DNA of 64,000 bases from Candidatus Onthomonas sp. (lineage in GTDB: Bacteria; Bacillota; Clostridia; Oscillospirales; Oscillospiraceae), in the NCBI GenBank assembly GCA_051866815.1, contig JBJDXS010000058.1, forward strand, positions 31,706 through 95,705, in the 5' to 3' direction. Below are positions 3,779-29,710 of this stretch, one piece after another. Each line of letters begins with the position of its first letter. Position 1 is the first letter of the stretch. Under the pieces are notes generated by a model that saw only the letters and a program-made list of their open reading frames with translations, did no database searches and had not been told where the DNA came from. The translations under genes were made by a program, and so were the position numbers.

Positions 3779-4381
3779 TTATGAAAAGTTCCAACCGGCC
3801 GCCCGGCCCGCCGCTCCCGCCAGCAGGGGATTGTGCCGCTGCTTGGCGGGCAGGCGCCAGTATCGCCGGAGAATCTCCAGGCTCCGCTGCTCCGGCGCGT
3901 TTCCCGGCCCCTGGGCCAGCAGGCAGAGTAACCCAACAGGAAGCTCCGCTGCCTCTCCCGTCCGCCCGGCCAGCACCCGGCACCGCCGGAGGGTGTACTC
4001 CCGCAGAAAGGCGGGCTCCCCTCCGTCCTGCCGCCGCAGGCCGGTTTGCGCTTTTGGCTCCGGCCAGGGAAGACCGGCGTAAAATGCCAGTACCCAGCGC
4101 AGCCAGTCCTGGGAAAAGGACAGCAGCAGAAGCCCGTTTTCCGCCCGGAGGTCTGAAAAGGGCGTACCGCTCAGGTCAGCGCGCTCCGCCAGGGCCCGGG
4201 CCAGTTGGCAGGGCTCCTCTCCCGGGCCGGCGCACTGCCGGGGCAGGGCGGAGAGCAGCAGCCCCGCCTCCCCCCGCAGCCGCAGGGGAATCCGCTCCGG
4301 CACCGGCCGCTCCAGAGCCAGAAGGGCTCCGGTCAGCAGCCGGGCGGCGGCGGTCAGGGCTTCCTCCATGGGCCAGCTCAC
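3779..4381 (-). CDS. Hypothetical protein resembling an arginyl-tRNA synthetase with the catalytic core missing (N-terminal Add-1-like plus C-terminal DALR-like parts)
   Basis: 200-aa ORF whose ATG overlaps the stop of the upstream DUF1934 gene (ATGA at 4378-4381). The segment ...LRAENGLLLLSFSQDWL resembles the ArgRS N-domain motif (IAGPGFINFxL..xxL). No HIGH/KMSK motifs are present. The function call is a guess. Confidence 0.5.
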   Translation of the reverse strand: MSWPMEEALTAAARLLTGALLALERPVPERIPLRLRGEAGLLLSALPRQCAGPGEEPCQLARALAERADLSGTPFSDLRAENGLLLLSFSQDWLRWVLAFYAGLPWPEPKAQTGLRRQDGGEPAFLREYTLRRCRVLAGRTGEAAELPVGLLCLLAQGPGNAPEQRSLEILRRYWRLPAKQRHNPLLAGAAGRAAGWNFS

Positions 4382-18368: not shown

Positions 18369-18881
18369 ATGCAGGAGACCAATCGCCCCGAACTGGAGGA
18401 CGCCCAGCGGTTCCGCCGGGTCTGGCAGCGGGTTCAGGGGGGCCGGGAGGAGGCGGAACGTGCCGCCGCAGAGGGGACTGAGCTGCCGGTTCAATCCTCC
18501 GCCCCCTGGGAGCCCACCGCCTTTCTCCAGGACGCCATCGTCCGCGCCCGGCTCCGGGGCAGCGCCTACCGCCAGTGGGTACGGCTGGCGCCGCTGGCCG
18601 GGCTGACTCTGAGCCAGGCCCGCAGGCTCACCGCCGCCCTGTTTCTGCTGCGGGGCATCCGGACAGTGCCGCAAGCTCAGGCTCCGGGGCGGCGCTGGGC
18701 CAGCCTGGAGGAGAGCTGCCGTCAGCTCTATCTCTGGGAGCGCCGGGAGGAGGCGGACTATCGGATTGCCCTGGGCCGCACGGCAGATCCGGAGCTTCAG
18801 GCCCTGTTCCGGGAACTGGCAGGAGAGTGCGCCATTCAGCAGCAGCGGCTGAGAGGGATATTGGAGGAGATTATGGAGTGA
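18369..18881 (+). CDS. Hypothetical helical protein
   Basis: 170 aa, with AGGAGGGA SD 6 nt before the ATG. No confident motif; Arg/Ala/Leu-rich helices. Confidence 0.55.
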   Translation: MQETNRPELEDAQRFRRVWQRVQGGREEAERAAAEGTELPVQSSAPWEPTAFLQDAIVRARLRGSAYRQWVRLAPLAGLTLSQARRLTAALFLLRGIRTVPQAQAPGRRWASLEESCRQLYLWERREEADYRIALGRTADPELQALFRELAGECAIQQQRLRGILEEIME

Positions 18882-19000: not shown

Positions 19001-19071
19001 CAGCGGGAGAAGGATTCGAACCCTCACATACAGAGTCAGAGTCTGCTGTGCTACCCTTACACAATCCCGCT
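19001..19071 (-). tRNA. tRNA-Gln (anticodon CTG)
   Basis: Hand-folded cloverleaf: acceptor AGCGGGA/TCCCGCT, D stem GTGT/GCAC with an AAGGGTA loop, anticodon stem GCAGA/TCTGT with loop CTCTGAC, T arm GAGGG-TTCGAAT-CCTTC, discriminator G. No encoded CCA. Confidence 0.85.
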
Positions 19072-19225
19072 AAATGGAATTTTCTGTCGTCTTGCTGACG
19101 ACTTTTATTATTATATCCATTTTCCCTCTGTTGTCAAGAGCTATTTCCCGATTTTTTCAATTTCCTATTTTCTACCCCTGTGGTAGAATAGAGCACACAG
19201 AGTTTTGTACAGAGGAGGGCGTAAT

Positions 19226-19807
19226 ATGGATTGGGAGAGCCTGCGGCAGACCTGTGAGCAGTGCCATAACTGTCCCCTGGGAGAGACCCGCACCAATCTG
19301 GTGTTCGGGGACGGCAATCCCAGGGCCAAGCTGATGCTGGTGGGCGAGGGCCCGGGCCAGCAGGAGGACCTCTCCGGTGTCCCCTTTGTAGGCCCGGCAG
19401 GGCAGCTGCTGGACCGGATGCTGGAGATCATCGACCTGGACCGGAGCCGCTACTATATTACTAATATCGTCAAATGCCGCCCGCCCCACAACCGGGATCC
19501 CCTGGCCCAGGAACAGGATGCCTGCATCGGCTATCTGCGCACCCAGACCCGGCTGATCCGCCCCAAGCTGATTGTCTGCCTGGGCCGCATCGCCGCCATG
19601 CGGCTGATCCGTCCGGATTACCGGATCACCCGGGAGCACGGCCAGTGGGTGCAGAAGGGGGACTTCTGGATGACCGCCATCTATCACCCCTCCGCCCTGC
19701 TCCGGGACGAGAGCAAGCGGCCGGAGGCCTTTGACGATCTCATCGGCATCCGGGATAAGATCCGGGAGATCTGCCCGGAGATCTACGGAGACCGGCCGGA
19801 GGGCTGA
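19226..19807 (+). CDS. Family 4 uracil-DNA glycosylase (Fe-S type)
   Basis: CEQCHNCPL Cys cluster, LVGEGPGQQED motif and HPSALLR near the C-terminus. Start at ATG 19226, after AGGAGGG. Confidence 0.85.
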   Translation: MDWESLRQTCEQCHNCPLGETRTNLVFGDGNPRAKLMLVGEGPGQQEDLSGVPFVGPAGQLLDRMLEIIDLDRSRYYITNIVKCRPPHNRDPLAQEQDACIGYLRTQTRLIRPKLIVCLGRIAAMRLIRPDYRITREHGQWVQKGDFWMTAIYHPSALLRDESKRPEAFDDLIGIRDKIREICPEIYGDRPEG

Positions 19808-19963
19808 CATCGCTGCCGCACCCTGTCGCATTTCGCCGCATAGGCTGGACTATCCCCGTTTTTCTGCCGGCCGGGTATAATCCCGCCGCCCTTGGGGAGA
19901 ATGAAAGTACCTCGTTACATAGGATGTGTGACGGGTAGATTTGATTCGGCGGAGTGTGAGATT

Positions 19964-20332
19964 GTGGATACCAGCGTCAGAAGAGGAGACATTTTTTACG
20001 CCGACCTGAGCCCGGTGGTGGGCAGCGAACAGGGCGGCGTCCGGCCCGTGCTGATTATTCAGAACGACATGGGCAACCGGCACAGCCCGACGGTGATCGC
20101 GGCGGCCATTACCTCCCAGCTCAATAAAGCAAAGCTGCCCACCCATATCGAGCTGATCGACCAGCACTGCGGCCTGACCCGGGACTCGGTGGTTCTGCTG
20201 GAGCAGATCCGAACCCTGGATAAGCGGCGGCTGCGGGAGCGGATGGGCCATCTGGACGAGGCGATGATGGAGGAGGTAGACACCGCAATCGCCGTCAGCT
20301 TCGGCCTGCGCCCCCGGGAGCGGGAGGTATAA
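19964..20332 (+). CDS. mazF: MazF/EndoA (PemK-family) mRNA interferase toxin
   Basis: [59 protein letters not shown] closely resembles B. subtilis EndoA. Start taken at GTG 19964 (GGAG 9 nt upstream); in-frame ATGs at 19892 and 19901 are possible alternatives. Confidence 0.85.
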
Positions 20333-20552: not shown

Positions 20553-21272
20553 TCACAGATGAAACTGCAGCAGATAGTGCTCCGGCAGAAAATACAGCTT
20601 GTTCCGGGCCAGCGGCCGGCTCTCCTCGTCCCGGAGGATGACCTCCATCAGGATCATAGGCCGGCCCTCCTCAATTTCCAGGAAGGACTTCTCCATCTCG
20701 TTGGCGAAGATCAACTTGATCACCAGATCCCACTGCTGAGCGGCCTCAAAGATGACCTGGGTGGAGAGCTGCTCAATGGCTCCCTCCTGAGACAGATCCA
20801 CATTCAGTTCCTTGAACACGGTCACCGGAATCTGGGTGAAGGCGTAGCCGATGGCCTGGCCGGCGGAGCGGTAGACGATGTCGCAGGCCAGGACGATGTC
20901 CGTCTTGTCCAAAGACAGCTTGGTTCGGGCAATGTCGGTGGGGGCGTTGTAGTTGTACTGAATCTGGATCTGATCCACCTTCTGCCGGGCCAGGTCGATG
21001 AGGGGATTTTTGTGCTTGTCCGGCGCCAGGGGCTTTTTCTGGGGAGCCACCAGCGTCTCCCGGCCCTGGGAGCGGACGATCAGCCCATCCTCCGCCAAAA
21101 TGGCCAGGGCTTGCCGGAGGGTGTTGCGGCTGACATGGTATTTCTCCGCCAGCGCCGTCTCTCCCGGCAGCGCCTCATTTTCCTGATAGACGCCGGAGCG
21201 CAGGTCAGAATACAGGGAATTGTAGACCGCCACATAAGCCGGCATTTTGCTTCCGGTCAGTGTCTGCTTCAT
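20553..21272 (-). CDS. GntR-family (HutC-like, UTRA effector domain) transcriptional regulator
   Basis: N-terminal wHTH LPGETALAEKYHVSRNTLRQALAILAEDGLI plus a roughly 150-aa C-terminal effector domain. Divergent from the ECF operon. Confidence 0.9.
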   Translation of the reverse strand: MKQTLTGSKMPAYVAVYNSLYSDLRSGVYQENEALPGETALAEKYHVSRNTLRQALAILAEDGLIVRSQGRETLVAPQKKPLAPDKHKNPLIDLARQKVDQIQIQYNYNAPTDIARTKLSLDKTDIVLACDIVYRSAGQAIGYAFTQIPVTVFKELNVDLSQEGAIEQLSTQVIFEAAQQWDLVIKLIFANEMEKSFLEIEEGRPMILMEVILRDEESRPLARNKLYFLPEHYLLQFHL

Positions 21273-21317
21273 CGTTGACCCCTCCTTTTCCGCTGTGCGG
21301 TTTATTCAGTAAATATT

Positions 21318-21346
21318 ATTATAGCACACCTCCCGCCCGGGTACAA
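21318..21346 (-). promoter_or_regulatory. gntR promoter candidate (TTGTAC-17-TATAAT with TGc extension)
   Basis: Minus-strand -10 is TATAAT (plus ATTATA at 21318-21323). Minus-strand -35 is TTGTAC (plus GTACAA at 21341-21346). Confidence 0.45.
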
Positions 21347-21353
21347 GTTGAAC
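21341..21353. promoter_or_regulatory. Candidate GntR operator 1 (GTACAA-G-TTGAAC)
   Basis: Imperfect GT..AC palindrome overlapping the -35 of the gntR promoter. Shares the 10-mer GTTGAACAAG with site 2. Confidence 0.35.
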
Positions 21354-21462
21354 AAGCAGCTGCGCAAACAGTCTTTCAGTGCCCACCAAAATAATTTTGA
21401 GAGCTCCATCCGTTTTTCGCTTATTCCCAAAAGATAGCCTGCTTTTTGTACTATATGACGAA

Positions 21463-21491
21463 TTGACAAGCAGTATTCCAAATGCTATACT
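21463..21491 (+). promoter_or_regulatory. ECF/DUF62 operon promoter (TTGACA-17-TATACT)
   Basis: TTGACA at 21463-21468 and TATACT at 21486-21491. Confidence 0.55.
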
Positions 21492-21499
21492 GCAAGCAT

Positions 21500-21516
21500 G
21501 TTCAATCTTGTTGAAC
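21500..21516. promoter_or_regulatory. Candidate GntR operator 2 (GTTCAA-TCTTG-TTGAAC)
   Basis: Perfect 6-bp inverted repeat starting 9 nt after the -10, near the expected transcription start. GTTGAACAAG also occurs at 21347-21356. Confidence 0.4.
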
Positions 21517-21535
21517 AAGTAAACGCTTTGAGGCG

Positions 21536-21584
21536 ACGGCGCTGGACGATTTTGCAGACAAATCCTCTGGTGCCGTTTTTGTTT
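21536..21584 (+). promoter_or_regulatory. Possible leader attenuator hairpin plus T tract
   Basis: ACGGCGCTGG (21536-45) can pair with CTGGTGCCGT (21567-76) using 3 G-U pairs and a 21-nt loop, followed by TTTTTGTTT. Weak. Confidence 0.25.
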
Positions 21585-21627
21585 CAAGGCAAAGTCAACC
21601 TGAACGAGAGAAACAGGAGGTATTGTC

Positions 21628-22209
21628 ATGAAGTCAAAACTGGGTGTCTGGACGACCAAATCCATCGTGACCATGGGCCTGGGCGCGGCGCTGTACGGCG
21701 TGCTGATGGTCTACGGCGCAGTTCCTATCTTCACCAACACGAATCTGTCCTTTGCCATGATCGTGCCCGTCTTTGTGGGCGGCCTGTTCGGCCCGCTGCC
21801 CGCCATGATCACCTGCGGCGTGGGCAATGTCATCGCCGACCTGATCGGCGGCTGGGGCATGTGGTTTGACTGGTCCATCGGCAACGCCGTTATGGGCCTG
21901 TTCGTGGGCATGCTGCCGCTGTACGGCGCGGACATCGCCAACGGCGTTTTCAAGGTCAAGCACGCGGTCATCTATGCCGTCCTGTGCGTGGTGGGCAATA
22001 TGCTGGCCTTCGGCGTGGTCACCCCCATCTTCTCCACCACTTTGTACGGCCAGGATCTGAACATCACCCTGATGCAGGCTGTCTTTGCCACTGCGGGCAA
22101 CACCCTGGTGCTGGTGGTGGCCGGCATTCCTATTCTGGTTCTGCTGTCCAAGCGGGCTGCTTCCAAGATGAACCTGAAGAAGGAAGCGGACGACAACGGC
22201 GAGTATTAA
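21628..22209 (+). CDS. ECF transporter substrate-specific (S) component, specificity unknown
   Basis: 193 aa with about 6 TM helices, a small Gly-rich polytopic protein (GVGNVIADLIGGWG). Sits immediately upstream of the ECF A and T genes. SD is AGGAGG. Confidence 0.8.
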   Translation: MKSKLGVWTTKSIVTMGLGAALYGVLMVYGAVPIFTNTNLSFAMIVPVFVGGLFGPLPAMITCGVGNVIADLIGGWGMWFDWSIGNAVMGLFVGMLPLYGADIANGVFKVKHAVIYAVLCVVGNMLAFGVVTPIFSTTLYGQDLNITLMQAVFATAGNTLVLVVAGIPILVLLSKRAASKMNLKKEADDNGEY

Positions 22210-22267
22210 TAGAGAAAAGTATTCCAGGTAATCTCTGCCCCGGAAAGCGTTGAAGAGGGAGGCCGAC

Positions 22268-23983
22268 ATGGACCATCGAAAGCCAGTCATCGAATTTCGG
22301 AACTTCGGGTTTCAGTACAAGTCTCAGCAGGAACCCACCTTGTACGATATTAACCTGACCATCTACGAGGGGGAAAAGGTGCTGATTCTGGGCAGCTCGG
22401 GCAGCGGCAAATCCACCCTGGCCAGCTGTGTCAACGGTCTCATTCCCTTCGCCGACGAGGGCACCATCACCGGCTCGGTGAAGGTCAACGGGGTGGAGAC
22501 CCGGGAGCGCTCGGTCTTTGAGCTGAGCAAATCGGTGGGCACCGTTCTCCAGGACAGCGACGCCCAGTTTGTGGGCCTGTCCGTAGGAGAGGATATCGCC
22601 TTCGCCATGGAAAACGACAATATGCCCCGGCCCCAGATGGTCCCCCGGGTGAAGAAATTCGCCGGTGTGGTGGGCATGCAAGACTTTCTGGGCGCGGTCC
22701 CCTTCAACCTCTCCGGCGGCCAGAAGCAAAAGGTGGCCATCGCCGGCGTCCTGGGCGAGGCGGTGAACATCCTTATCTTTGACGAGCCCCTGGCCGCTCT
22801 GGACCCCCAGGCGGGGCTGGAGACGGTGGAGATCATCGACGAGCTCTCCCGGCAGGAGAACCGCACCATCCTCATCATCGAGCACCGGCTGGAGGATGTG
22901 CTCCACCGCCATGTAGACCGCATTATCTTTCTCTCGGAGGGCCGGATTCTGGCGGACACCACGTCGGAAGCTCTGCTCCGGTCCTCCCGGCTGAAGGAGT
23001 ACGGCATCCGGGAGCCCCTCTATCTCACCGCTATGAAATACGCCGGCTGCGACCTGGAGGCCCAGCCCCAGATCTCTGACTTTGCCGGGCTGGAGCTGAC
23101 AAAGGAGAACCGGGAGCGGCTGCTGCGCTTCTTCCAGGAGGAGGTTCCCCCCGCCCCCGCCCCGGCGGGCGATCCCCTGCTGGAGTTCCAAAACGTGACC
23201 TTCGCCTATGAGGAAGCTCCCGTAGTGGAGGACATCTCCTTCCAGGTGCGCAGGGGCGAGCGGATCGCTGTCATCGGCAAAAACGGCGCCGGTAAGTCCA
23301 CCGCCGCCCGGCTGGCCTGCGGCGTCATCCGGCCCCAGAAGGGCAAGATCCTGCTGGAGGGCAAGGATGCGGCCAAGCTCACCGTCAAGGAGCTGGGGGA
23401 GCACATCGGCTACGTCATGCAGGACCCCAACCAGATGCTGATCAAGGACGTCATCAAGAGCGAGGTAGAGCTGGCCCTGGTTCTCCGGGAGTATCCCAAG
23501 GAGGAGCGCCAGCGCCGGGCCAGCGCAGCCCTGAAGGCCTGCAACCTCTATCCCATGCGCAACTGGCCGGTAGACGCCATCAGCTACGGCCAGAAGAAGC
23601 GGGTCACCACCGCCTCCATGATGGCCCTGGAGCCGGAGATCCTCATCCTGGACGAGCCCACCGCCGGCCAGGACTACAACAGCTACTCCGAGATCATGGA
23701 GTTTGTCAACAATCTGAACCGGGAGTATCACACCACCATCCTCTTTATCACCCACGATCTGCACCTGGCCATTGAGCACACCGACCGCACCATCGTCTTT
23801 GCCGACGGCAAGGTGGTGGCGGACGACTCTCCCTTTGCCGTCCTGGCGGACGACGGCGTGATTCAGACGGCACATTTGAAGCGCACCTCTCTCTACGAGC
23901 TGGCGGAGAAGCTGGGGCTCTCCCCCGAGTTGGTGATCCGGCGCTTCATCGACTTTGAGAGGAGGGAGCGGCAGACGCCATGA
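22268..23983 (+). CDS. ECF transporter fused double ATPase (EcfA-EcfA', YkoD-like architecture)
   Basis: Two ABC cassettes: Walker A GSSGSGKST and GKNGAGKST; signatures LSGGQKQKVAIA and ISYGQKKRV; Walker B ILIFDEP and ILILDEP. Start trimmed to ATG 22268, after GGGAGG. Confidence 0.9.
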   Translation: MDHRKPVIEFRNFGFQYKSQQEPTLYDINLTIYEGEKVLILGSSGSGKSTLASCVNGLIPFADEGTITGSVKVNGVETRERSVFELSKSVGTVLQDSDAQFVGLSVGEDIAFAMENDNMPRPQMVPRVKKFAGVVGMQDFLGAVPFNLSGGQKQKVAIAGVLGEAVNILIFDEPLAALDPQAGLETVEIIDELSRQENRTILIIEHRLEDVLHRHVDRIIFLSEGRILADTTSEALLRSSRLKEYGIREPLYLTAMKYAGCDLEAQPQISDFAGLELTKENRERLLRFFQEEVPPAPAPAGDPLLEFQNVTFAYEEAPVVEDISFQVRRGERIAVIGKNGAGKSTAARLACGVIRPQKGKILLEGKDAAKLTVKELGEHIGYVMQDPNQMLIKDVIKSEVELALVLREYPKEERQRRASAALKACNLYPMRNWPVDAISYGQKKRVTTASMMALEPEILILDEPTAGQDYNSYSEIMEFVNNLNREYHTTILFITHDLHLAIEHTDRTIVFADGKVVADDSPFAVLADDGVIQTAHLKRTSLYELAEKLGLSPELVIRRFIDFERRERQTP

Positions 23984-24900
23984 ACAACCGATTTGTCATC
24001 AACTTTGTCCCCGGCAGCACCATGCTGCACAAGCTCACCGGCGGCACCAAGGTGGCCCTGTTCATCCTCTACACCGCCGCCATCATTGTCACCTTTGACA
24101 TCCGGCTGCTGCTGCCGCTGACCGTCTTCCCCATCGCGGCGATCATCTCCATGAAGCCCAACTACAAGCCCCTGGTGGTCATGTATACCTTTATGTTTGT
24201 CACCGTGGGCCTCATCGGCGGCGTCATGCTGCTCTTCTTTGCCTCCAATGCGGGGCTTACCCATGTGGGCGCCAATCATATCATCTGGCAGCTCACCGAG
24301 GACATCTACCTGAGCAAGGAGTGGCTCTGGTACAATCTGGTCTTCTTCCTCAAGCGGACGGTGTCCTTCCTGACGGTCATGGCTTTCGCCCTGGCCACCA
24401 CTCCTTCGGAATTTGCCTCCGGCCTGGCAGTGCTGAAGGTGCCCTATAAGGTCTGCACCATCATCTCCCTGGCATACCGCTCCATCCCCGACATCGCCCG
24501 GCAGTTCGTGGACATCCGCAACAGCATGCAGATGCGGGGCACCGAGCTCAGCGGCAAAATTCCCCTCCATAAGAAAATCAAGCAGTATGTGCTGCTGCTG
24601 GTGCCGCTGATCATCTCCACCTTCGCCCGGGTGGGGGACATCGCCAAGGCCATGGATCTCCGGGGCTACGGCAAGAAAAAGCAGCGCAGCTGGTATGCCG
24701 AGCACGAGCTGACCCCGGCGGACAAGGTGCTGCGGGTGGTCTGCGTGCTGCTGCTCCTCTTTATCATCGGGTATGTGATCTATACCAAGCTGATCAATCC
24801 CTATCCCGCCCAGATGTGGTGCCCCTGGGTCTCCCGGGAGGAGATTCAGACCGTCTCCACCGTGGACACCCTCTTCTTCCGGGATCTGCTCCCCGATTAA
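23980..24900 (+). CDS. ECF transporter transmembrane (T) component (EcfT/CbiQ family)
   Basis: 306 aa, polytopic. Its start overlaps the ATPase stop (ATGA). Contains the coupling-helix-like motif (AYRSIPDIARQF...MQMRG). Confidence 0.85.
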   Translation: MNNRFVINFVPGSTMLHKLTGGTKVALFILYTAAIIVTFDIRLLLPLTVFPIAAIISMKPNYKPLVVMYTFMFVTVGLIGGVMLLFFASNAGLTHVGANHIIWQLTEDIYLSKEWLWYNLVFFLKRTVSFLTVMAFALATTPSEFASGLAVLKVPYKVCTIISLAYRSIPDIARQFVDIRNSMQMRGTELSGKIPLHKKIKQYVLLLVPLIISTFARVGDIAKAMDLRGYGKKKQRSWYAEHELTPADKVLRVVCVLLLLFIIGYVIYTKLINPYPAQMWCPWVSREEIQTVSTVDTLFFRDLLPD

Positions 24901-24940
24901 ATGACATACGTCAAAAGAAAATGCGGAAAGGACGATTTTT

Positions 24941-25780
24941 GTGAAAAGCGCAGTTGTTATGTTAACTGATTTCGGCGTAGACAACCTGTCTGTCTCCACC
25001 ATGTTCGGCGTCTGCCGGATTGTGGATCCGGAGCTGGACGTGTTCAGCGCCTGCAACGCCATCCGTCCCTTTGACGTGCTGGCCGCCTCGGACGCGCTGA
25101 TGTATGTGATGCCCTTCTGGCCCAAGGGAACGGTGTTCGTCTCGGTGGTGGATCCCGGCGTGGGCACCGCCCGGAAGGCCAGCGTGGCCAAGCTGCGCAA
25201 CGGCCAGTATGTGGTCACTCCGGACAACGGCACTCTGACCTATATCAAGGAGCAGGTGGGAATTGAGGAGATCCGGGAGATCGACGAGTCCATCAACCGC
25301 TATCCCACCACCCGGAACATCCACATCTTCCACGGCCGGGATCTCTTCGCCTACTGCGGCGCCCGACTGGCCGCCGGGGTCATCACCTATGAGCAGGTGG
25401 GCCCTGCCTACCCGGTGGAGGACGTGGTAGAGGCCTACTATATTAAGCCCAAGGCGGAGGACGGCGTCCTCTCCGGCATGATCAACGAGGCCACCGACCA
25501 CTTCGGCCTGCTGGGCACCAACATCCCCTTCGGCTGGCTGGAGGAGAACGGCATCCACTACGGCGACCGGGTCCATGTGACCATCACCTGCAAGGAGGAG
25601 GTCAAGCTGGACGCGGAGCTGCCCCTGGCCAAGAGCTTTGGCTATGTGGGCCTGGGGGAGATGCTGATGCTCAGCTCGGAGACCGCTACCGTCATGCTGG
25701 CCAAGAACCAGGGCAATCTTGTGGCCGACTGCGGCCTGGGCTGCGGCCCGGATTGGAAGCTCACCTTCTCCAAGATCTGA
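24941..25780 (+). CDS. DUF62 SAM hydrolase/halogenase-fold protein, paralog 1 (motifs intact)
   Basis: LTDFG, FVSVVDPGVGTARK, TPDNGTL, FHGRDLFAYCGARLAAG and a C-terminal barrel part. GTG start 7 nt after GGAAAGGA. Confidence 0.85.
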   Translation: MKSAVVMLTDFGVDNLSVSTMFGVCRIVDPELDVFSACNAIRPFDVLAASDALMYVMPFWPKGTVFVSVVDPGVGTARKASVAKLRNGQYVVTPDNGTLTYIKEQVGIEEIREIDESINRYPTTRNIHIFHGRDLFAYCGARLAAGVITYEQVGPAYPVEDVVEAYYIKPKAEDGVLSGMINEATDHFGLLGTNIPFGWLEENGIHYGDRVHVTITCKEEVKLDAELPLAKSFGYVGLGEMLMLSSETATVMLAKNQGNLVADCGLGCGPDWKLTFSKI

Positions 25781-25807
25781 CCCAGTCCGGAGAAAGGAGA
25801 GACGCTT

Positions 25808-26650
25808 ATGAGCTACGCAAGTGTTGTCCTGACGGCGGACTGGGGAGGCGGGAGCCCCCGCACCGCCCAGGTGATCGGCTGTGCCAAGCAGGCGGATCCG
25901 TCGCTGGATGTCTGCCCCGCCCACATCTGGCTGGGCCGACAGGACATCGGCCAGGCCTCGGGGATGCTGTATGCCATGCTGCCCTTCTGGCCCGCCGGCA
26001 CCGTCTTTCTCAACCTGGTGCACGCCGTGGAGGGGGAGACGGCCTGGCTGGCGGCGGTGATGAAATGTGGCTGCATCCTGCTGACGCCGGATAACGGCAG
26101 CATCACCATGCCCCTGCGGGTGTTGGGGGTGTCCGGCCTCTACCGGATTTCCGGGGAGACCGACGACTTCCAGGCTGCCCGCCTGGCGGGGGAGATTGCC
26201 CGGAACGGCCTCTCTGCCGGGCTGCTGGGCAAGCCGGTGGAGGAAACGGAGATTTGCCAGCTGGCCTGGACAGAGCCGGTTCTGGCCCCCGGCCGGGCCT
26301 CCGGCGTCATTGTCCAGGTCATGCAGAACTTCGGCAACCTCACCACCAATATCCCCATCTCTGATTTCCAGACCACCGGCATTCAGGCCGGGGACTGGGT
26401 GCGCCTGACGGTGTGCCGGGGGGAGCAGGTGTTCTTTGACCAGGAGGCCCTCTATCACCACTCCTTCGGCTTTGCGGAGGACGGGGCACCCATCGTATTC
26501 AACGGCAGCAGCGGCTTTATGGGCTTTGGCCTCAACCGCCGGAACTTTGTCAAGACCTATCTGTCCCCGCTGGAGCAGCCGGGGCAGACCCCCACAGAAT
26601 ATCAGGTTTCCATTGTGAAAGTGGACAGGAGTGTGCAAGATGAAAAGTGA
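25808..26650 (+). CDS. DUF62-fold protein, paralog 2 (catalytic motifs degenerate)
   Basis: Same length and collinear with the other paralogs (PFWPAGTVF, TPDNGS, FGNLTTNIP retained). However VVDPGVGTAR becomes LVHAVEGETA, and the FHGRD segment is deleted or replaced. Confidence 0.75.
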   Translation: MSYASVVLTADWGGGSPRTAQVIGCAKQADPSLDVCPAHIWLGRQDIGQASGMLYAMLPFWPAGTVFLNLVHAVEGETAWLAAVMKCGCILLTPDNGSITMPLRVLGVSGLYRISGETDDFQAARLAGEIARNGLSAGLLGKPVEETEICQLAWTEPVLAPGRASGVIVQVMQNFGNLTTNIPISDFQTTGIQAGDWVRLTVCRGEQVFFDQEALYHHSFGFAEDGAPIVFNGSSGFMGFGLNRRNFVKTYLSPLEQPGQTPTEYQVSIVKVDRSVQDEK

Positions 26651-27494
26651 TCTGGTTCTGCAAACCGATTTCAGCCTGTCTACCGGCTATGTGGCCGCCA
26701 TGTACGGCGTCATCAAGCTGGTGGATCGCTCCCTCAACGCCTACGACCTGAACCATGAGATCCGGGCCTTTGACGTCAAGCAGGCCTCGGAGCTGCTCAA
26801 GGCCACCATCCCCTTCTGGCCCCAGGGCACCGTCTTTGTGTCGGTGGTGGATCCCGGGGTGGGTACCGCCCGCCGGGGTTGCGTCGCCCTGCTGAACAAC
26901 GGCAGCTATGTGGTCACCCCGGACAACGGTACCCTCACCGCCCTGAAGGATCAGGTGGTGGCCATCCGCCAGATCGATGAGACGGTGAACCGGCTCCCCG
27001 GCAGCGAAAACGGAAACACCTTCCACGGTCGGGACGTCTTTGCTTACTGCGCCGCCCGGCTGGCCGCCGGGATCATCGACTACAACGGGGTTGGCCCCGC
27101 CTATCCCCTCAGCGAGCTGGTGACCTATACCCAGAATCAGCCGGAAATCTCCGAAGGAAAAGCGGTGGGCGAGATCGGCGGCGCCGAACGCCACTTCGGA
27201 GGCGTCAGCTTCAACATCACCGCCGAGGAGTTCGCCAGCACCGGCATTCAGCGGGGGGATATGACCCACATCACCATCACCAAGGGCTGCGACCGGTACT
27301 TTGACGGGGACGTGCTCTATCACTGGTCCTTTGGCTATGTGCCGGTGGGGGAGCCCATCCTGTATAACGGCAGCACCAGCGTCTATATCAGCCTCTCCCT
27401 CAACCAGCGGAACTTTGTCCAGAAGTATCTGCCGGATATCTGGGATACCGGGGTCAACTTCTCCGATTACAAGGTCACTATCACAAAGAAGTAG
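26640..27494 (+). CDS. DUF62 SAM hydrolase/halogenase-fold protein, paralog 3 (motifs intact)
   Basis: QTDFS, FVSVVDPGVGTARR, TPDNGTL, FHGRDVFAYCAARLAAG. Its start overlaps the paralog 2 stop by 11 nt; an alternative ATG lies at 26631. Confidence 0.85.
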   Translation: MKSDLVLQTDFSLSTGYVAAMYGVIKLVDRSLNAYDLNHEIRAFDVKQASELLKATIPFWPQGTVFVSVVDPGVGTARRGCVALLNNGSYVVTPDNGTLTALKDQVVAIRQIDETVNRLPGSENGNTFHGRDVFAYCAARLAAGIIDYNGVGPAYPLSELVTYTQNQPEISEGKAVGEIGGAERHFGGVSFNITAEEFASTGIQRGDMTHITITKGCDRYFDGDVLYHWSFGYVPVGEPILYNGSTSVYISLSLNQRNFVQKYLPDIWDTGVNFSDYKVTITKK

Positions 27495-27505
27495 GAGGCG
27501 TCTCT

Positions 27506-28345
27506 ATGGCCAAACCCAGTATTGTATTTCAGACCGACTTCGGACTGGGGGGCGGCGGTGCCATGTACGGTGTCTGCAAGCAGGTGGATCCCGGCCTCCG
27601 GTTCTACGAGCTGACCCACACCATCCCCACCTTCGACGTGGTCAAGGCATCCCTCTCCCTTCGGGATGTGATGCCCGCCTGGCCCGAGGGAACCATCTTT
27701 GTCTCGGTGGTGGATCCCGGGGTGGGCACCGCCCGCCGGGCCTCCATCGCCCGCACCTGCAACGGCTACTATATCACCACCCCGGACAACGGCAGCCTCA
27801 CCTATCCTCTGCTGGACTTCGGCATCGAGGAGATCCGCCAGATCGACGAGACGGTGAACCGCTACCACGGCACCGAGAACACCAGCATTTTCCACGGCCG
27901 GGATCTCTTCGCCTACTGCGCCGCCCGGCTGGCCGCCGGGGTCATCGACTTCGAGGGCGTCGGCCCCGCCTATCCCGTCTCTGAGATCGTCACCTTCCCG
28001 GTGCCCAAGTACACGGTAGAGGCCGGGATCGCCTCCGGCAGCATCACCGGCTGCCTGGCCAGCTTCGGCAACCTGGACACCAGCATCCCCGCCTCCGCCA
28101 TGGCAAAGACAGGCATTGCCAGCGGCGGCCGCGTGCGCCTCACCCTCTGCCATGGGGAGGAAGTCCTGTTTGACCGGCCGGTGCTGTATCGGGAGTCCTT
28201 TGCCGACGCCCAGCCCGGGGAGGAGATTCTCTTTCACAACTACAGCGGCTTTTTGGGCATTGCCGTCAACCGGGGCAGCTTTGCCCAGCGCTACCAGGTG
28301 GGCACCGGCCCGGACTGGACGGTCACGGTGAGAAAGGCGGAGTGA
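27506..28345 (+). CDS. DUF62 SAM hydrolase/halogenase-fold protein, paralog 4 (motifs intact)
   Basis: QTDFG, FVSVVDPGVGTARR, TPDNGSL, FHGRDLFAYCAARLAAG. SD is AGGAGG. Confidence 0.85.
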   Translation: MAKPSIVFQTDFGLGGGGAMYGVCKQVDPGLRFYELTHTIPTFDVVKASLSLRDVMPAWPEGTIFVSVVDPGVGTARRASIARTCNGYYITTPDNGSLTYPLLDFGIEEIRQIDETVNRYHGTENTSIFHGRDLFAYCAARLAAGVIDFEGVGPAYPVSEIVTFPVPKYTVEAGIASGSITGCLASFGNLDTSIPASAMAKTGIASGGRVRLTLCHGEEVLFDRPVLYRESFADAQPGEEILFHNYSGFLGIAVNRGSFAQRYQVGTGPDWTVTVRKAE

Positions 28346-28347
28346 GC

Positions 28348-28833
28348 ATGGGAAATATTCTGTTTCAATCGGACTACGGCCTGGGTAACGGCACGGCGGA
28401 GCTGAGCGGCATCTGCCTCCGGGTAGACCCGGCGCTGCAGATCTACACGCTGAGCCATGACCTCCCCCGCCTGGACGTGGCTGCCGCCGCCGCCAATCTG
28501 GCCGCCGTGGAGCCCCTCTGGCCGGCAGGGACCGTCCTGGTCTCTCTGGTGGACCCGGAGGTGGGGACGGAGCACCGGATCTGCGCCGCCCGTACCGTCC
28601 ACGGCTGCTATATGCTCACAGCAGACAACGGCGCTCTGGCCCCGCTGAAGAAGTCCATCGATCAGGTGCGGGACATCGGGCAGCTGCTGAAGCAGTACCC
28701 TTTCCCCGCCGCCTCCGCGCTGCTCCACGGCAAGGACCTGGCCTGGGCTGCCGCCCTGCTGGCCTCCGGCCAGCGCCCCTTTGAGGCGCTGGGGGATCCC
28801 TATCCGGTGGAAGAGATTGCAGGTGCAGTTTAG
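28348..28833 (+). CDS. DUF62 N-terminal domain-only protein, paralog 5 (truncated or stand-alone)
   Basis: 161 aa with QSDYG, LVSLVDPEVGTEHR, TADNGAL, LHGKDLAWAAALLASG. It ends where the C-terminal barrel domain should begin. Could be a gene remnant. Confidence 0.6.
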   Translation: MGNILFQSDYGLGNGTAELSGICLRVDPALQIYTLSHDLPRLDVAAAAANLAAVEPLWPAGTVLVSLVDPEVGTEHRICAARTVHGCYMLTADNGALAPLKKSIDQVRDIGQLLKQYPFPAASALLHGKDLAWAAALLASGQRPFEALGDPYPVEEIAGAV

Positions 28834-28868
28834 TTGACATAAAATTCAGATGCGGATGTTCCGCGGTA

Positions 28869-28907
28869 ACGCCCCCGTTTCCGCCCTTGCGCGGGAGACG
28901 GGGGCGC
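28869..28907 (+). other. Strong GC hairpin after the DUF62 array, without a U tract
   Basis: CGCCCCCGT...ACGGGGGCG with an inner CCGC/GCGG pairing. No T run follows, so terminator function is uncertain. Confidence 0.35.
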
Positions 28908-28969
28908 TGCCGTGTGCTCCGCCGCGAGAGGGCAGGACTGTGGCTGCTCTCATATTTTTTGCAGATTTC

Positions 28970-28998
28970 TTGTCTTTCCCCCGGGCCGATGCTATAAT
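28970..28998 (+). promoter_or_regulatory. pyrE promoter candidate (TTGTCT-17-TATAAT)
   Basis: TTGTCT at 28970-28975 and TATAAT at 28993-28998. Confidence 0.5.
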
Positions 28999-29038: not shown

Positions 29039-29710
29039 ATGACTTATCAAGAGGAATTTATCACCTTTATGGTGCGCTCCGGCGTGCTGACCTTCGGCGA
29101 CTTCACCACCAAGAGCGGGCGCAAAACCCCCTACTTTGTCAATACCGGCAACTACAAGACCGGCGCCCAGGCCGCCAAGCTGGGCGACTACTACGCCGCC
29201 TGCATCCAGGAGAACCTCCCTGAAGGGATTGACGCCCTCTTTGGCCCCGCCTATAAGGGCATCCCCCTGGCTGTCACCGCCGCCGCCTCCCTCTACCGGA
29301 ACTATGACCGGGACTTGCCCTACTGCTTTAACCGTAAGGAGGCCAAGGATCACGGCGAGGGAGGCTCCATGGTGGGCTATAAGCCCCAGGACGGGGACCG
29401 GATCGCCATCATTGAGGACGTGGTCACCGCCGGTACCGCTGTCCGGGAGTCCATCGCCCTGTTTGAGCATGTGGCCAAGGTGGATATCAAGGCCCTCTTC
29501 GTCTCAGTCGACCGGATGGAGCGGGGCACCCGGGACTGCTCCACCCTGGACGAGCTGCACCAGGACTACGGCATCCAGGTATTCCCCATCGTCACCGTCC
29601 GCCAGGTCATCGACTTCCTGCATAACAATCCCATCGACGGGAAAATCTACATTGACGACGATATGAAGGCCCGGATGGAGGCCTATCTGGCCACCTATGG
29701 AGCCCGATAA
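29039..29710 (+). CDS. pyrE: Orotate phosphoribosyltransferase
   Basis: FGDFTTKSGRKTPYFVN, the PRPP loop IAIIEDVVTAGTA, and AYKGIPLA. Start at ATG 29039, after AGGAGGG. Confidence 0.9.
   Translation: MTYQEEFITFMVRSGVLTFGDFTTKSGRKTPYFVNTGNYKTGAQAAKLGDYYAACIQENLPEGIDALFGPAYKGIPLAVTAAASLYRNYDRDLPYCFNRKEAKDHGEGGSMVGYKPQDGDRIAIIEDVVTAGTAVRESIALFEHVAKVDIKALFVSVDRMERGTRDCSTLDELHQDYGIQVFPIVTVRQVIDFLHNNPIDGKIYIDDDMKARMEAYLATYGAR

Follow-up and report, generated by a model that had tools for sequence, protein, structure and literature searches.

Enzymes of the DUF62 family convert S-adenosylmethionine (SAM) to adenosine and methionine (Met) and are selective for the (R)-epimer (PMC10491745; bioRxiv 10.1101/2025.08.29.672840); an Asp-Arg-His triad (D68/R75/H127 in PH0463) activates the water and separates these hydrolases from halogenases (PMC10491745). 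They are widespread, have often been crystallized and are used as biocatalysts, and their role in the cell is still argued (PMC12120602). Bacterial uptake of SAM is known only via specific transporters of obligate parasites (PMC12676344). Here we describe an operon, from a 64,000-nucleotide stretch of Candidatus Onthomonas DNA (the window), in which the genes of a dedicated energy-coupling factor (ECF) importer are followed by five tandem DUF62 genes. ECF importers and DUF62 hydrolases are each of a known kind; their link in one operon is apparently undescribed. Literature searches found no paper on an ECF-DUF62 system or on heteromeric DUF62 arrays – as had been supposed in a first reading of the locus made from its letters alone (the sequence-only reading) – and a mention in Rodionov 2004/2009, Kornfuehrer 2020 or Eustaquio 2008 is possible.

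The link between this importer and DUF62 genes is conserved across species, and some relatives of the operon are controlled by RNA elements that sense SAM, tRNA-Met or guanine. Strict coupling to one importer, together with these sensors, gives the DUF62 proteins a testable physiological context. The view we favor, with a probability of roughly 0.55, is that the module imports an S-adenosyl-type compound and cleaves it at C5' to adenosine and methionine.

DUF62 genes linked to one ECF importer

A profile of the substrate-capture (S) component was scanned against one genome per GTDB species; 255 loci were obtained and the best 80 of the 255 were examined, DUF62 genes being detected in them with a hidden Markov model built from the window paralogs. 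The S orthologues in these 80 species-level loci are 57–98% identical (the closest named carrier is a Candidatus Onthomonas metagenome-assembled genome, MAG), and in essentially every sufficiently long locus one to five DUF62 genes share an operon with the genes for the S component, the fused ATPase and the T component (S-AA-T). Loci without a DUF62 match are mostly short or end near the transporter genes; two (L027 and L083) extend further and still have none. The neighborhood survey proposed in the sequence-only reading thus finds DUF62 next to ecf genes as a rule, and the same coupling is seen in five further S relatives (P0283, P0331, P0321, P0335 and the distant P0159). The expectation of one DUF62 copy per genome does not hold: two copies are common in the S clade.

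Carriers belong to Oscillospiraceae, Christensenellaceae, Lachnospiraceae (Diplocloster, Anaerocolumna), Erysipelotrichaceae, Thermoclostridium, Mageeibacillus and the spirochaetes (Treponema, Sphaerochaeta), and live in gut, rumen and digester. When 1.84 billion representatives were searched, the DUF62-linked S clade came to about one 50% cluster (320 bits); the next full-length S relatives outside that cluster reach at most 183 bits. Among relatives outside the clade, DUF62 was not found beside Paenibacillus UPF0397 (which has its own AA-T), in the P0305 locus (L107, S-AA-T), at two S genes that stand alone, or in nine distant loci from metagenomes.

Genes of the window locus were called from profile searches (Pfam, NCBIfam) and a listing of open reading frames (ORFs). 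All nine lie where the sequence-only reading had placed them, with family matches well above threshold; the labels D1 to D5 denote the five tandem DUF62 ORFs, 5' to 3'.

20553–21272, minus strand: GntR/HutC-type regulator, winged helix-turn-helix plus UTRA effector domain (PF00392 62.9 bits, PF07702 28.5 bits)
21628–22209, plus strand: ECF S component, the substrate-capture subunit, PF07155/UPF0397-type (PF07155 95.5 bits, NF010182 123.5 bits)
22268–23983, plus strand: fused A-A' ATPase, two ABC domains and a DUF3744 linker (PF00005 twice, PF12558, TIGR04520 411 bits)
23980–24900, plus strand: ECF T component, CbiQ family (PF02361 105.8 bits)
24941–25780, plus strand: DUF62 class D1, full length, Asp-Arg-His triad intact (SAM_HAT_N 140.6 bits, SAM_HAT_C 49.9 bits)
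25808–26650, plus strand: DUF62 class D2, conserved pseudoenzyme by prediction, triad lost (SAM_HAT_N 49 bits)
26640–27494, plus strand: DUF62 class D3, full length, triad intact (SAM_HAT_N within 140–151 bits)
27506–28345, plus strand: DUF62 class D4, full length, triad intact, canonical C-domain (SAM_HAT_N within 140–151 bits)
28342–28833, plus strand: DUF62 class D5, N-terminal domain only, 163 aa (SAM_HAT_N 95.2 bits)

The GntR gene is divergent from the operon and separated from S by 355 nt (21273–21627). The contiguous genes for S, T and two A domains mark a group I (dedicated) ECF transporter, and the ATPase exceeds the TIGR04520 cut-off of 315 with its 411 bits; it has an alternative TTG start at 22250, and the T gene overlaps it by 4 nt (ATGA). 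The gaps T-D1, D1-D2, D2-D3, D3-D4 and D4-D5 are 40, 27, -11, 11 and -4 nt; the first four agree with the earlier figures, and the 2 nt once given for the last applies only if D5 starts at ATG 28348. No DUF62 ORF beyond D1–D5 and no MetK signature was found anywhere in the window. Housekeeping genes (rimP, UDG, radC, uvrB) and a MazF-type toxin gene flank the operon. The PemK/MazF-type toxin ORF (19892–20332, plus strand, 123.9 bits) lies between a family-4-like UDG gene (19205–19807) and the GntR gene, with no evident antitoxin ORF immediately upstream; a single tRNA gene (19001–19071, minus strand, 59.3 bits) lies between the UDG gene and a 170-aa ORF (18369–18881) that has no Pfam match.

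Five arrangements recur among the species:

Architecture I: S-AA-T-D1-D2-D3-D4-D5, about 20 species including the window, plus shortened variants
Architecture II: S-AA-T-M20 dipeptidase-DUF62A(-B), 18 loci
Architecture III: DUF62A-B-S-AA-T-FGase amidohydrolase, 5 loci
Architecture IV: S-AA-T-A-B-GNAT-GntR, 6 loci
Architecture V: one DUF62 upstream of S-AA-T, sometimes two more downstream

FGase-family genes occur in nine loci overall, in varying arrangements. The minimal module – one DUF62 gene plus S-AA-T and nothing else – is found in L034, L043, L059, L075 and L104. When 91 flanking genes from other species were assigned to Pfam families, no family occurred more than four times and no further pathway genes recurred; on that basis additional conserved pathway genes around the operon were rejected.

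Two groups of loci stand somewhat apart. Eight near-identical loci (L001–L004, L025, L026, L037, L039) come from MAGs labeled Sphaerochaeta, Bacteroidaceae and Coriobacteriaceae; they hold a PdxK-like kinase, a 302-aa protein, S-AA-T-D1-D2-D3-short D4 and an additional reverse-strand DUF62 with FYGRD. They may reflect errors of binning, or else the module has recently moved as a whole by horizontal transfer; the Bacteroidaceae and Coriobacteriaceae labels look like binning errors. At the distant P0159 locus (L110 4980–13250, JGI 3300048627) DUF62-S stands at the end of a tight cobT/AP-endonuclease-2-fold/cobU/cobS/HAD/72-aa cluster, and two ATPase domains and T are fused in a single 879-aa protein. 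The scan for RNA elements was negative here, and only 62 nt of intergenic sequence precede cobT; a cobalamin link, seen this once and without a B12 riboswitch, was retained as a minor alternative.

Five DUF62 classes

All five ORFs match SAM_HAT_N (PF01887) with 49–151 bits against a Pfam gathering score of 26.3. D1–D4 also match SAM_HAT_C (PF20257) with 34–56 bits; D5 ends after the N-domain and has no C-terminal barrel domain. The full DUF62 signature, ascribed in the sequence-only reading to every copy, is present in D1, D3 and D4 but not in D2, which is without DPGVGTAR and FHGRD, nor in D5, which is without the barrel. VVDPGVGTAR, FHGRD and the Asp that binds ribose are all present in D1, D3 and D4, whose Asp-Arg-His triad is intact; the C-domain ligand residues of D1 are divergent. 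In D2 the DPGVGTAR motif is replaced by LVHAVEG-ETA and a 13-residue deletion takes out FHGRD; the ribose-binding Asp, TPDNG and the canonical C-domain residues FGN...S.G (FGN and S269) are retained. D5 reads DPEVGTEHR and LHGKD: Asp and His are retained, and the Arg position is His. The N-terminal Asp of xTDFG, which we take to be the ribose binder (as D16 in FlA), occurs in all five (TDFG, ADWG, TDFS, TDFG and SDYG, from D1 to D5). An AlphaFold2 (AF2) model of D2 (predicted local distance difference test, pLDDT, 88.9) has the DUF62/halogenase fold, with template modeling (TM) scores of 0.7–0.8 to TM 2ZBU, SalL, FlA, MJ1651 and PH0463. Motifs and model together identify D2 as a predicted folded pseudoenzyme.

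The fluorinase model TIGR04507 gives D1–D5 17–80 bits against a cut-off of 400, and the positions of FlA Tyr77 and Tyr157 (the latter beside the halide-binding Ser158) are filled by the hydrolase Asp and His. With scores so far below the cut-off, and an intact hydrolase triad in three of the five, the halogenated nucleosides once listed as candidate substrates find no support. The ligand-contact positions of FlA, whose sequence was verified against 1RQP, were mapped onto the DUF62 classes: ribose and adenine contacts are largely conserved among them, with D1 and D3 varying at the N215 position.

Best matches between species follow the position in the array. D1, D3 and D4 are 50–73% identical to their positional counterparts (58–71% for D1 orthologues at the first array position in other species); mean identity within classes is 58–60% (47% for D5 and 38.5% for D2) versus 27–50% between classes; and the order D1-D2-D3-D4-D5 recurs in some 20 species-level loci. 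The D2 triad is lost in all 27 of the 27 lineages that carry D2. When dN/dS was calculated against a congeneric genome (L008), all eight operon genes proved to be under purifying selection, with D3 the most strongly constrained (0.03), and D2 (0.27) and D5 (0.28) evolving faster than D1 and D3. The five copies are, on these comparisons, old orthologous classes and not a lineage-specific expansion of equivalent enzymes. The supposed expansion of like paralogs thus gives way to a set that includes one apparent pseudoenzyme and one half-protein; recent tandem duplication was rejected on the class identities and the conserved gene order.

In proteins of this fold (FlA, SalL, PH0463) two neighboring protomers build each active site, one with its N-domain and the other with its C-domain. 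D2 combines a dead N-domain with a good C-domain, and D5 is an N-domain only; further, 29 loci have a dead full-length D2 or an N-only ORF, and 28 of these have both; the two are absent from four loci that hold three intact full-length copies. Given interface active sites and this co-occurrence, a hetero-oligomer is the simplest reading: D2 and D5 probably complement each other within it, and the class structure favors such an assembly over a mere widening of substrate range. The array, with three catalytic subunits, a pseudoenzyme and a half-protein, would then show from nature how a pseudoenzyme can be recruited into an oligomer whose active sites lie at interfaces. The N-only ORF (145–185 aa) is present in 29 related arrays, its triad intact in some lineages and degenerate in that of the window. 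One array (L009, 13327–16389; D1-D3-D4-N-only, all motifs intact) is the only one to have an N-only ORF without a triad-dead D2; a purine riboswitch 6 kb upstream of it (3858–3959) heads another gene.

Transcription and regulatory signals

From the regulator gene to the terminator, one strong plus-strand sigma-70 site is present, followed at once by a conserved palindrome. The elements are as follows:

21344–21356, unstranded: second, weaker operator-like site CAAGTTGAACAAG near the GntR gene start (motif search)
21463–21491, plus strand: sigma-70 promoter, TTGACA-17 nt-TATACT with extended -10 TG (11 of 12 consensus positions)
21499–21519, unstranded: palindromic operator TGTTCAA-N5-TTGAACA / CTTGTTGAACAAG, directly 3' of the -10 element (motif search and conservation)
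28852–28960, plus strand: operon end, a long GC-rich hairpin (28852–28922), then a terminator hairpin (28928–28951) with T-run (minimum free energy -66.7 kcal/mol)

The hairpins at the operon end follow the D5 stop codon and fold far better than shuffled sequence (z = -4.63). The single hairpin noted earlier at 28869–28907 is real but only the core of the longer stem, and the second hairpin with its T-run lies 3' of it. Downstream, pyrE starts at 29039 behind its own promoter (28970–28998); it is a separate unit and was rejected as an operon member. The operon is consistent with a single promoter-to-terminator unit of about 7.4 kb, and promoter, terminator and operator together agree with the single transcript under a divergent GntR regulator that had been predicted.

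No riboswitch was found in the leader (21273–21627), either with Rfam at E <= 1 or with purine and SAM covariance models built here. Since the leader holds a GntR operator instead, the window operon is predicted to be under GntR control. The operator TGTTCAA-N5-TTGAACA (21499–21517) is a perfect palindrome; its motif has three matches in the 64 kb versus 0.54 expected, and two of the three lie inside the GntR-S intergenic region. An orthologous regulator is present in 18 related loci. Both 7-mers, TGTTCAA and TTGAACA, occur in 11 of 11 divergent GntR-S intergenic regions, and the 13-mer nTTGTTSAACAAG lies 56–121 nt upstream of S in the same number of divergent-GntR loci (11 of 11). In five of the six loci with a GNAT-GntR pair 3' of the DUF62 genes, CATGTTSAACAAC is found 27–38 nt upstream of S; in L082, where GntR is far upstream, the operator motif was not found. 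The second site recurs as CTTGTTTAACATT at the equivalent position in six relatives, with a weaker variant in L013, and makes GntR autoregulation through 21344–21356 probable. The overall pattern of operator and regulator is consistent with a local HutC-type repressor.

Relatives of the operon carry other signals (the S components of the SAM-I and T-box loci are 62–66% identical to that of the window). SAM-I riboswitches above the Rfam gathering score stand directly upstream in L071 (59.1 bits), L052 (57.5), L077 (59.5) and L032 (80.6); that of L071 is followed by a terminator, and the first gene 3' of that of L032 is DUF62. T-boxes for Met (specifier GAAC-AUG-G) with a terminator precede S in L054, L055, L056, L064 and L067, closely related species that count as one lineage. 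Three of these T-boxes were scored by Rfam (81–86 bits, E ~1e-16, below the gathering score of 93); for those of L056 and L064 the assignment comes from the motif and from near-identity in sequence. A guanine-type (C74) purine riboswitch is found 48 nt upstream of S in L093 and L094 (S-AA-T-DUF62-DUF62). Because a metagenome scan and a protein search with P0283 gave only distant relatives or members of the main clade, the purine-riboswitch signal comes from one lineage.

Covariance models built from the SAM-I, T-box and purine hits found no further copies in about 90 sources, and no FMN, tetrahydrofolate (THF), cobalamin or other cofactor riboswitch was found upstream of any operon scanned with Rfam. 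Operons of the five-gene architecture have GntR or other control, with no riboswitch or T-box seen. The molecules sensed are SAM, tRNA-Met and guanine/hypoxanthine, and all the elements act so as to switch expression on when these are scarce. The sensors match both products of the DUF62 reaction, which fits a SAM-like substrate that yields methionine and adenosine.

Other RNA genes and elements lie near some of these loci. A second T-box with Met specifier and full score (118–125 bits; L071 7043–7262, L052 804–1024) controls an ABC-transporter cluster just upstream of the SAM-riboswitch ECF-DUF62 operon, and a tmRNA gene lies 3' of that operon (L071 16153–16496, L052 9921–10267). In Thermoclostridium caenicola (L063 9340–9513, minus strand) a lysine riboswitch of 103.9 bits lies on the opposite strand just upstream of the ECF-DUF62 operon, where it presumably controls the divergent gene.

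Proposed function and comparison with known systems

We infer the substrate, the direction of the chemistry on it, the hetero-oligomer and the GntR effector, and propose the following. A scarce S-adenosyl-type compound would be taken up by a dedicated group I ECF transporter, made up of a fused A-A' ATPase, T and an S component that belongs to a separate sub-clade of PF07155. The compound would most likely be SAM, together with the inactive (R)-sulfonium epimer that forms from it spontaneously, or else something closely analogous; outside cells the substrate would probably be a mixture of SAM epimers. The co-translated DUF62 proteins would attack C5' with activated water and set free adenosine together with L-methionine (or whichever amino-acid moiety corresponds to it), which would feed the salvage of purines and of methionine/SAM. 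The enzyme part would consist of three catalytic full-length proteins (D1, D3 and D4), a dead full-length D2 and an N-domain-only D5, the last two complementing each other in a hetero-oligomer. A HutC-type GntR repressor, whose operator would overlap the transcription start, would presumably be released by substrate or product. The import-and-cleave idea of the sequence-only reading is strengthened by the near-universal ECF-DUF62 pairing in the S clade and by the SAM-I, Met T-box and guanine control of relatives. That SAM itself is the substrate we rate at slightly less than an even chance.

Several observations weigh against this proposal. The DUF62 hydrolases described in the literature work slowly, and what they do physiologically is in dispute (PMC12120602). 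The (R)-SAM hydrolase equivalog models NF058624 and NF053629 give only 33–119 bits against cut-offs of 350 and 470: D1–D5 are, by these scores, apparently DUF62 superfamily members and not equivalogs of the characterized hydrolases. The methionine-end pocket positions (FlA numbering) differ class by class, and the mapping names no ligand; low equivalog scores and class-specific positions together mean that SAM itself may not be the substrate of every paralog. The S component passes the model NF010182 ('ECF-type riboflavin transporter substrate-binding protein') with 123.5 bits against a cut-off of 99, and its specificity is not readable from sequence or fold. Riboswitch and T-box evidence comes from about 10 of about 90 loci, none of them with the five-gene architecture. 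Plain SAM hydrolysis leaves the M20 dipeptidase (18 loci), FGase amidohydrolase (nine) and GNAT (six) genes unexplained; these suggest chemistry on the alpha-amino group or on an N-blocked amino-acid moiety. Finally, to cleave imported SAM when SAM is scarce would be wasteful, unless the inactive epimer alone is cleaved. The (R)-epimer selectivity of DUF62 enzymes would resolve this apparent waste: the cell could retain the usable (S,S)-SAM and recycle the inactive epimer.

A more elaborate version is tentative, and we would not bet on it: a heteromeric DUF62 machine, in which the C-domain of D2 is lent to D5 and three catalytic subunits have different pockets, coupled to the first ATP-driven uptake of SAM-type compounds in free-living bacteria. 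If so, the complex would sort or process several adenosyl compounds, for example with (S,S)-SAM spared, (R,S)-SAM destroyed and analogues cleaved, and the physiological role of DUF62 would be the intracellular half of community-level SAM scavenging. More generally, if import and cleavage are correct, the cofactors that are cross-fed would come to include SAM and what it breaks down to, through an ECF route in anaerobes that are abundant in gut, rumen and digester, with a possible bearing on the uptake of SAM-analogue drugs.

Much depends on the S component. Its AF2 model (pLDDT 84) has the six-helix S-component fold and is nearest to FolT (TM 0.6–0.74); Foldseek gives a probability of 1.0 against FolT, TmRibU, BioY, ThiT and PanT, and ranks FolT above TmRibU. 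A highly conserved motif, GNVIADLIGGWGMWFDWSIGN, is found in the DUF62-linked S components. A further stretch, GN(V)IADLIGGWGMWFDWSIGN, is aromatic and acidic in character (three Trp, one Phe, two Asp) and does not vary within the clade; speculating from this composition, a ligand site for cation-pi interaction and adenine stacking is plausible.

Four other explanations were considered. The importer might bring in another source of Met (methionine, N-acyl-Met, Met-dipeptides, S-adenosylhomocysteine (SAH) or methylthioadenosine (MTA)), with DUF62 not acting on the transported compound and serving as a co-regulated housekeeping repair enzyme for (R)-SAM; this corresponds to the SEED 'methionine-regulated ECF transporter'. 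SAM-riboswitch and Met T-box control place the operon in the Met/SAM regulon and no more, the M20 dipeptidase or FGase amidohydrolase genes of many operons would suit N-blocked or peptide-bound Met, and DUF62 enzymes are documented (R)-SAM hydrolases. DUF62 is, however, the only enzyme universally linked to the S clade, down to minimal modules of DUF62 and S-AA-T, and a housekeeping repair enzyme would hardly stay with a single transporter in about 85 species and five or more operon architectures, or expand into five specialized subunits. Guanine-riboswitch control (L093) also fits a purine-yielding substrate and not Met alone, and we regard this explanation as unlikely, if still a serious one. 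DUF62 might on the other hand serve assembly, moving the 5'-deoxyadenosyl group from intracellular SAM to an imported nucleophile such as a corrinoid. The fold does transfer adenosyl to F-, Cl- and OH-, class-specific differences line the distal pocket, and one distant relative has DUF62-S-AAT at the end of a cobT-cobU-cobS-HAD cluster (L110). Yet the water-activating triad is intact in D1, D3 and D4, no cobalamin riboswitch was found in any locus scanned, and the cob neighborhood was seen once. SAM riboswitches, moreover, turn the operon off when SAM is plentiful, the wrong logic for an assembly that consumes SAM, and such a role is improbable.

A true importer of riboflavin (or FMN or FAD) with unrelated DUF62 passengers would agree with the scores of PF07155 ('ECF-ribofla_trS', 95.5 bits) and NF010182, and with the same name in public annotations of orthologues. 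The sequence-only reading had itself held that an S component in a known, unrelated clade would tell against its proposal; by name the S component does fall in one, but the sensors found read SAM, tRNA-Met and guanine, with no FMN riboswitch (RF00050) in the window or the 36 loci scanned with Rfam. A PDB sequence search with the S component returned no RibU at E <= 10 and FolT alone at E = 0.05, and its model is likewise closer to FolT than to TmRibU. A survey paper on riboflavin transporters takes B. subtilis RibU as prototype and leaves the window S family unmentioned, and the DUF62 linkage is far too consistent for passengers. The match to riboflavin is name-level only and the label 'riboflavin transporter' is unsupported; riboflavin import by this module is very improbable, and both that name and 'chlorinase/fluorinase' are probably wrong for ECF-DUF62 genes. 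As for the array itself, loss of catalytic residues or of a whole domain in D2 and D5, and their faster evolution relative to D1 and D3, could be taken for recent tandem duplicates in decay, with these two as functionless pseudogenes. Both nevertheless persist as intact ORFs, without change of place in the array, in more than 25 species from several families, with dN/dS of 0.27–0.28; identity between classes falls to 27–50%, and the D2 model is a confident, complete two-domain structure. To decay we give almost no credence.

Against this background the favored import-and-cleave module can be set beside the systems it most resembles. YkoEDC (for hydroxymethylpyrimidine (HMP)/thiamine) and MtsA/B/C (MtsTUV) have, like the window, an operon for S, a fused A-A' ATPase with DUF3744 linker and T. 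Rodionov and co-workers reportedly named the latter a 'methionine-regulated ECF transporter' (MtsABC/MtsTUV) with duplicated ATPase, and its substrate is said never to have been identified. MtsA may belong to the sequence family of the window S component; no description of a link between the Mts system and DUF62 was found. Control by S-box or Met T-box defines the Mts system and is seen in relatives of the window operon, whereas the window itself has a GntR operator. The annotation string 'methionine-regulated ECF transporter' is in use for streptococci, and streptococcal ECF-type genes of S. suis (SSUSC84_0347-0349) are tabulated in PMC9423846. The molecule name of the chlorinase ClA1 (PDB 7CCG, of DUF62 fold) is a misnomer that also appears on an S. 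suis gene (PMC9423846); since the two share it, the streptococcal gene may be a mislabeled DUF62, and the streptococcal methionine-regulated system may also adjoin a DUF62 gene.

RibU and FolT share the six-helix fold with the window S component; they differ from it in sequence (identity at most 24%) and motif (GNVIADLIGGWGMWFDWSIGN being distinct), and the window has no FMN or THF riboswitch. RP076 of Rickettsia and CTL843 of Chlamydia (DMT family) share SAM uptake as a function only: they are unrelated secondary carriers of parasites without SAM synthesis, whereas the window module would be an ATP-driven ECF system of free-living anaerobes with coupled cleavage. FlA and SalL share the fold and the active site at the interface of N- and C-domains with the window DUF62 proteins, which differ in their TIGR04507 scores and in having Asp and His where FlA has Tyr77 and Tyr157. 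Closest are the characterized DUF62 hydrolases (PH0463, MJ1651, TM 2ZBU, Salinispora StDUF62, Saci and Hvo SAMH): they have the two-domain fold and Pfam families of the window set, and share the ribose-binding Asp and the triad with D1, D3 and D4. These hydrolases are single-gene homotrimers (in crystals) with no known transporter partner, whereas the window has five classes tied to an ECF importer; and the adenosine and L-methionine produced by the DUF62 reaction are the metabolites sensed by RNA control in the relatives of the window operon.

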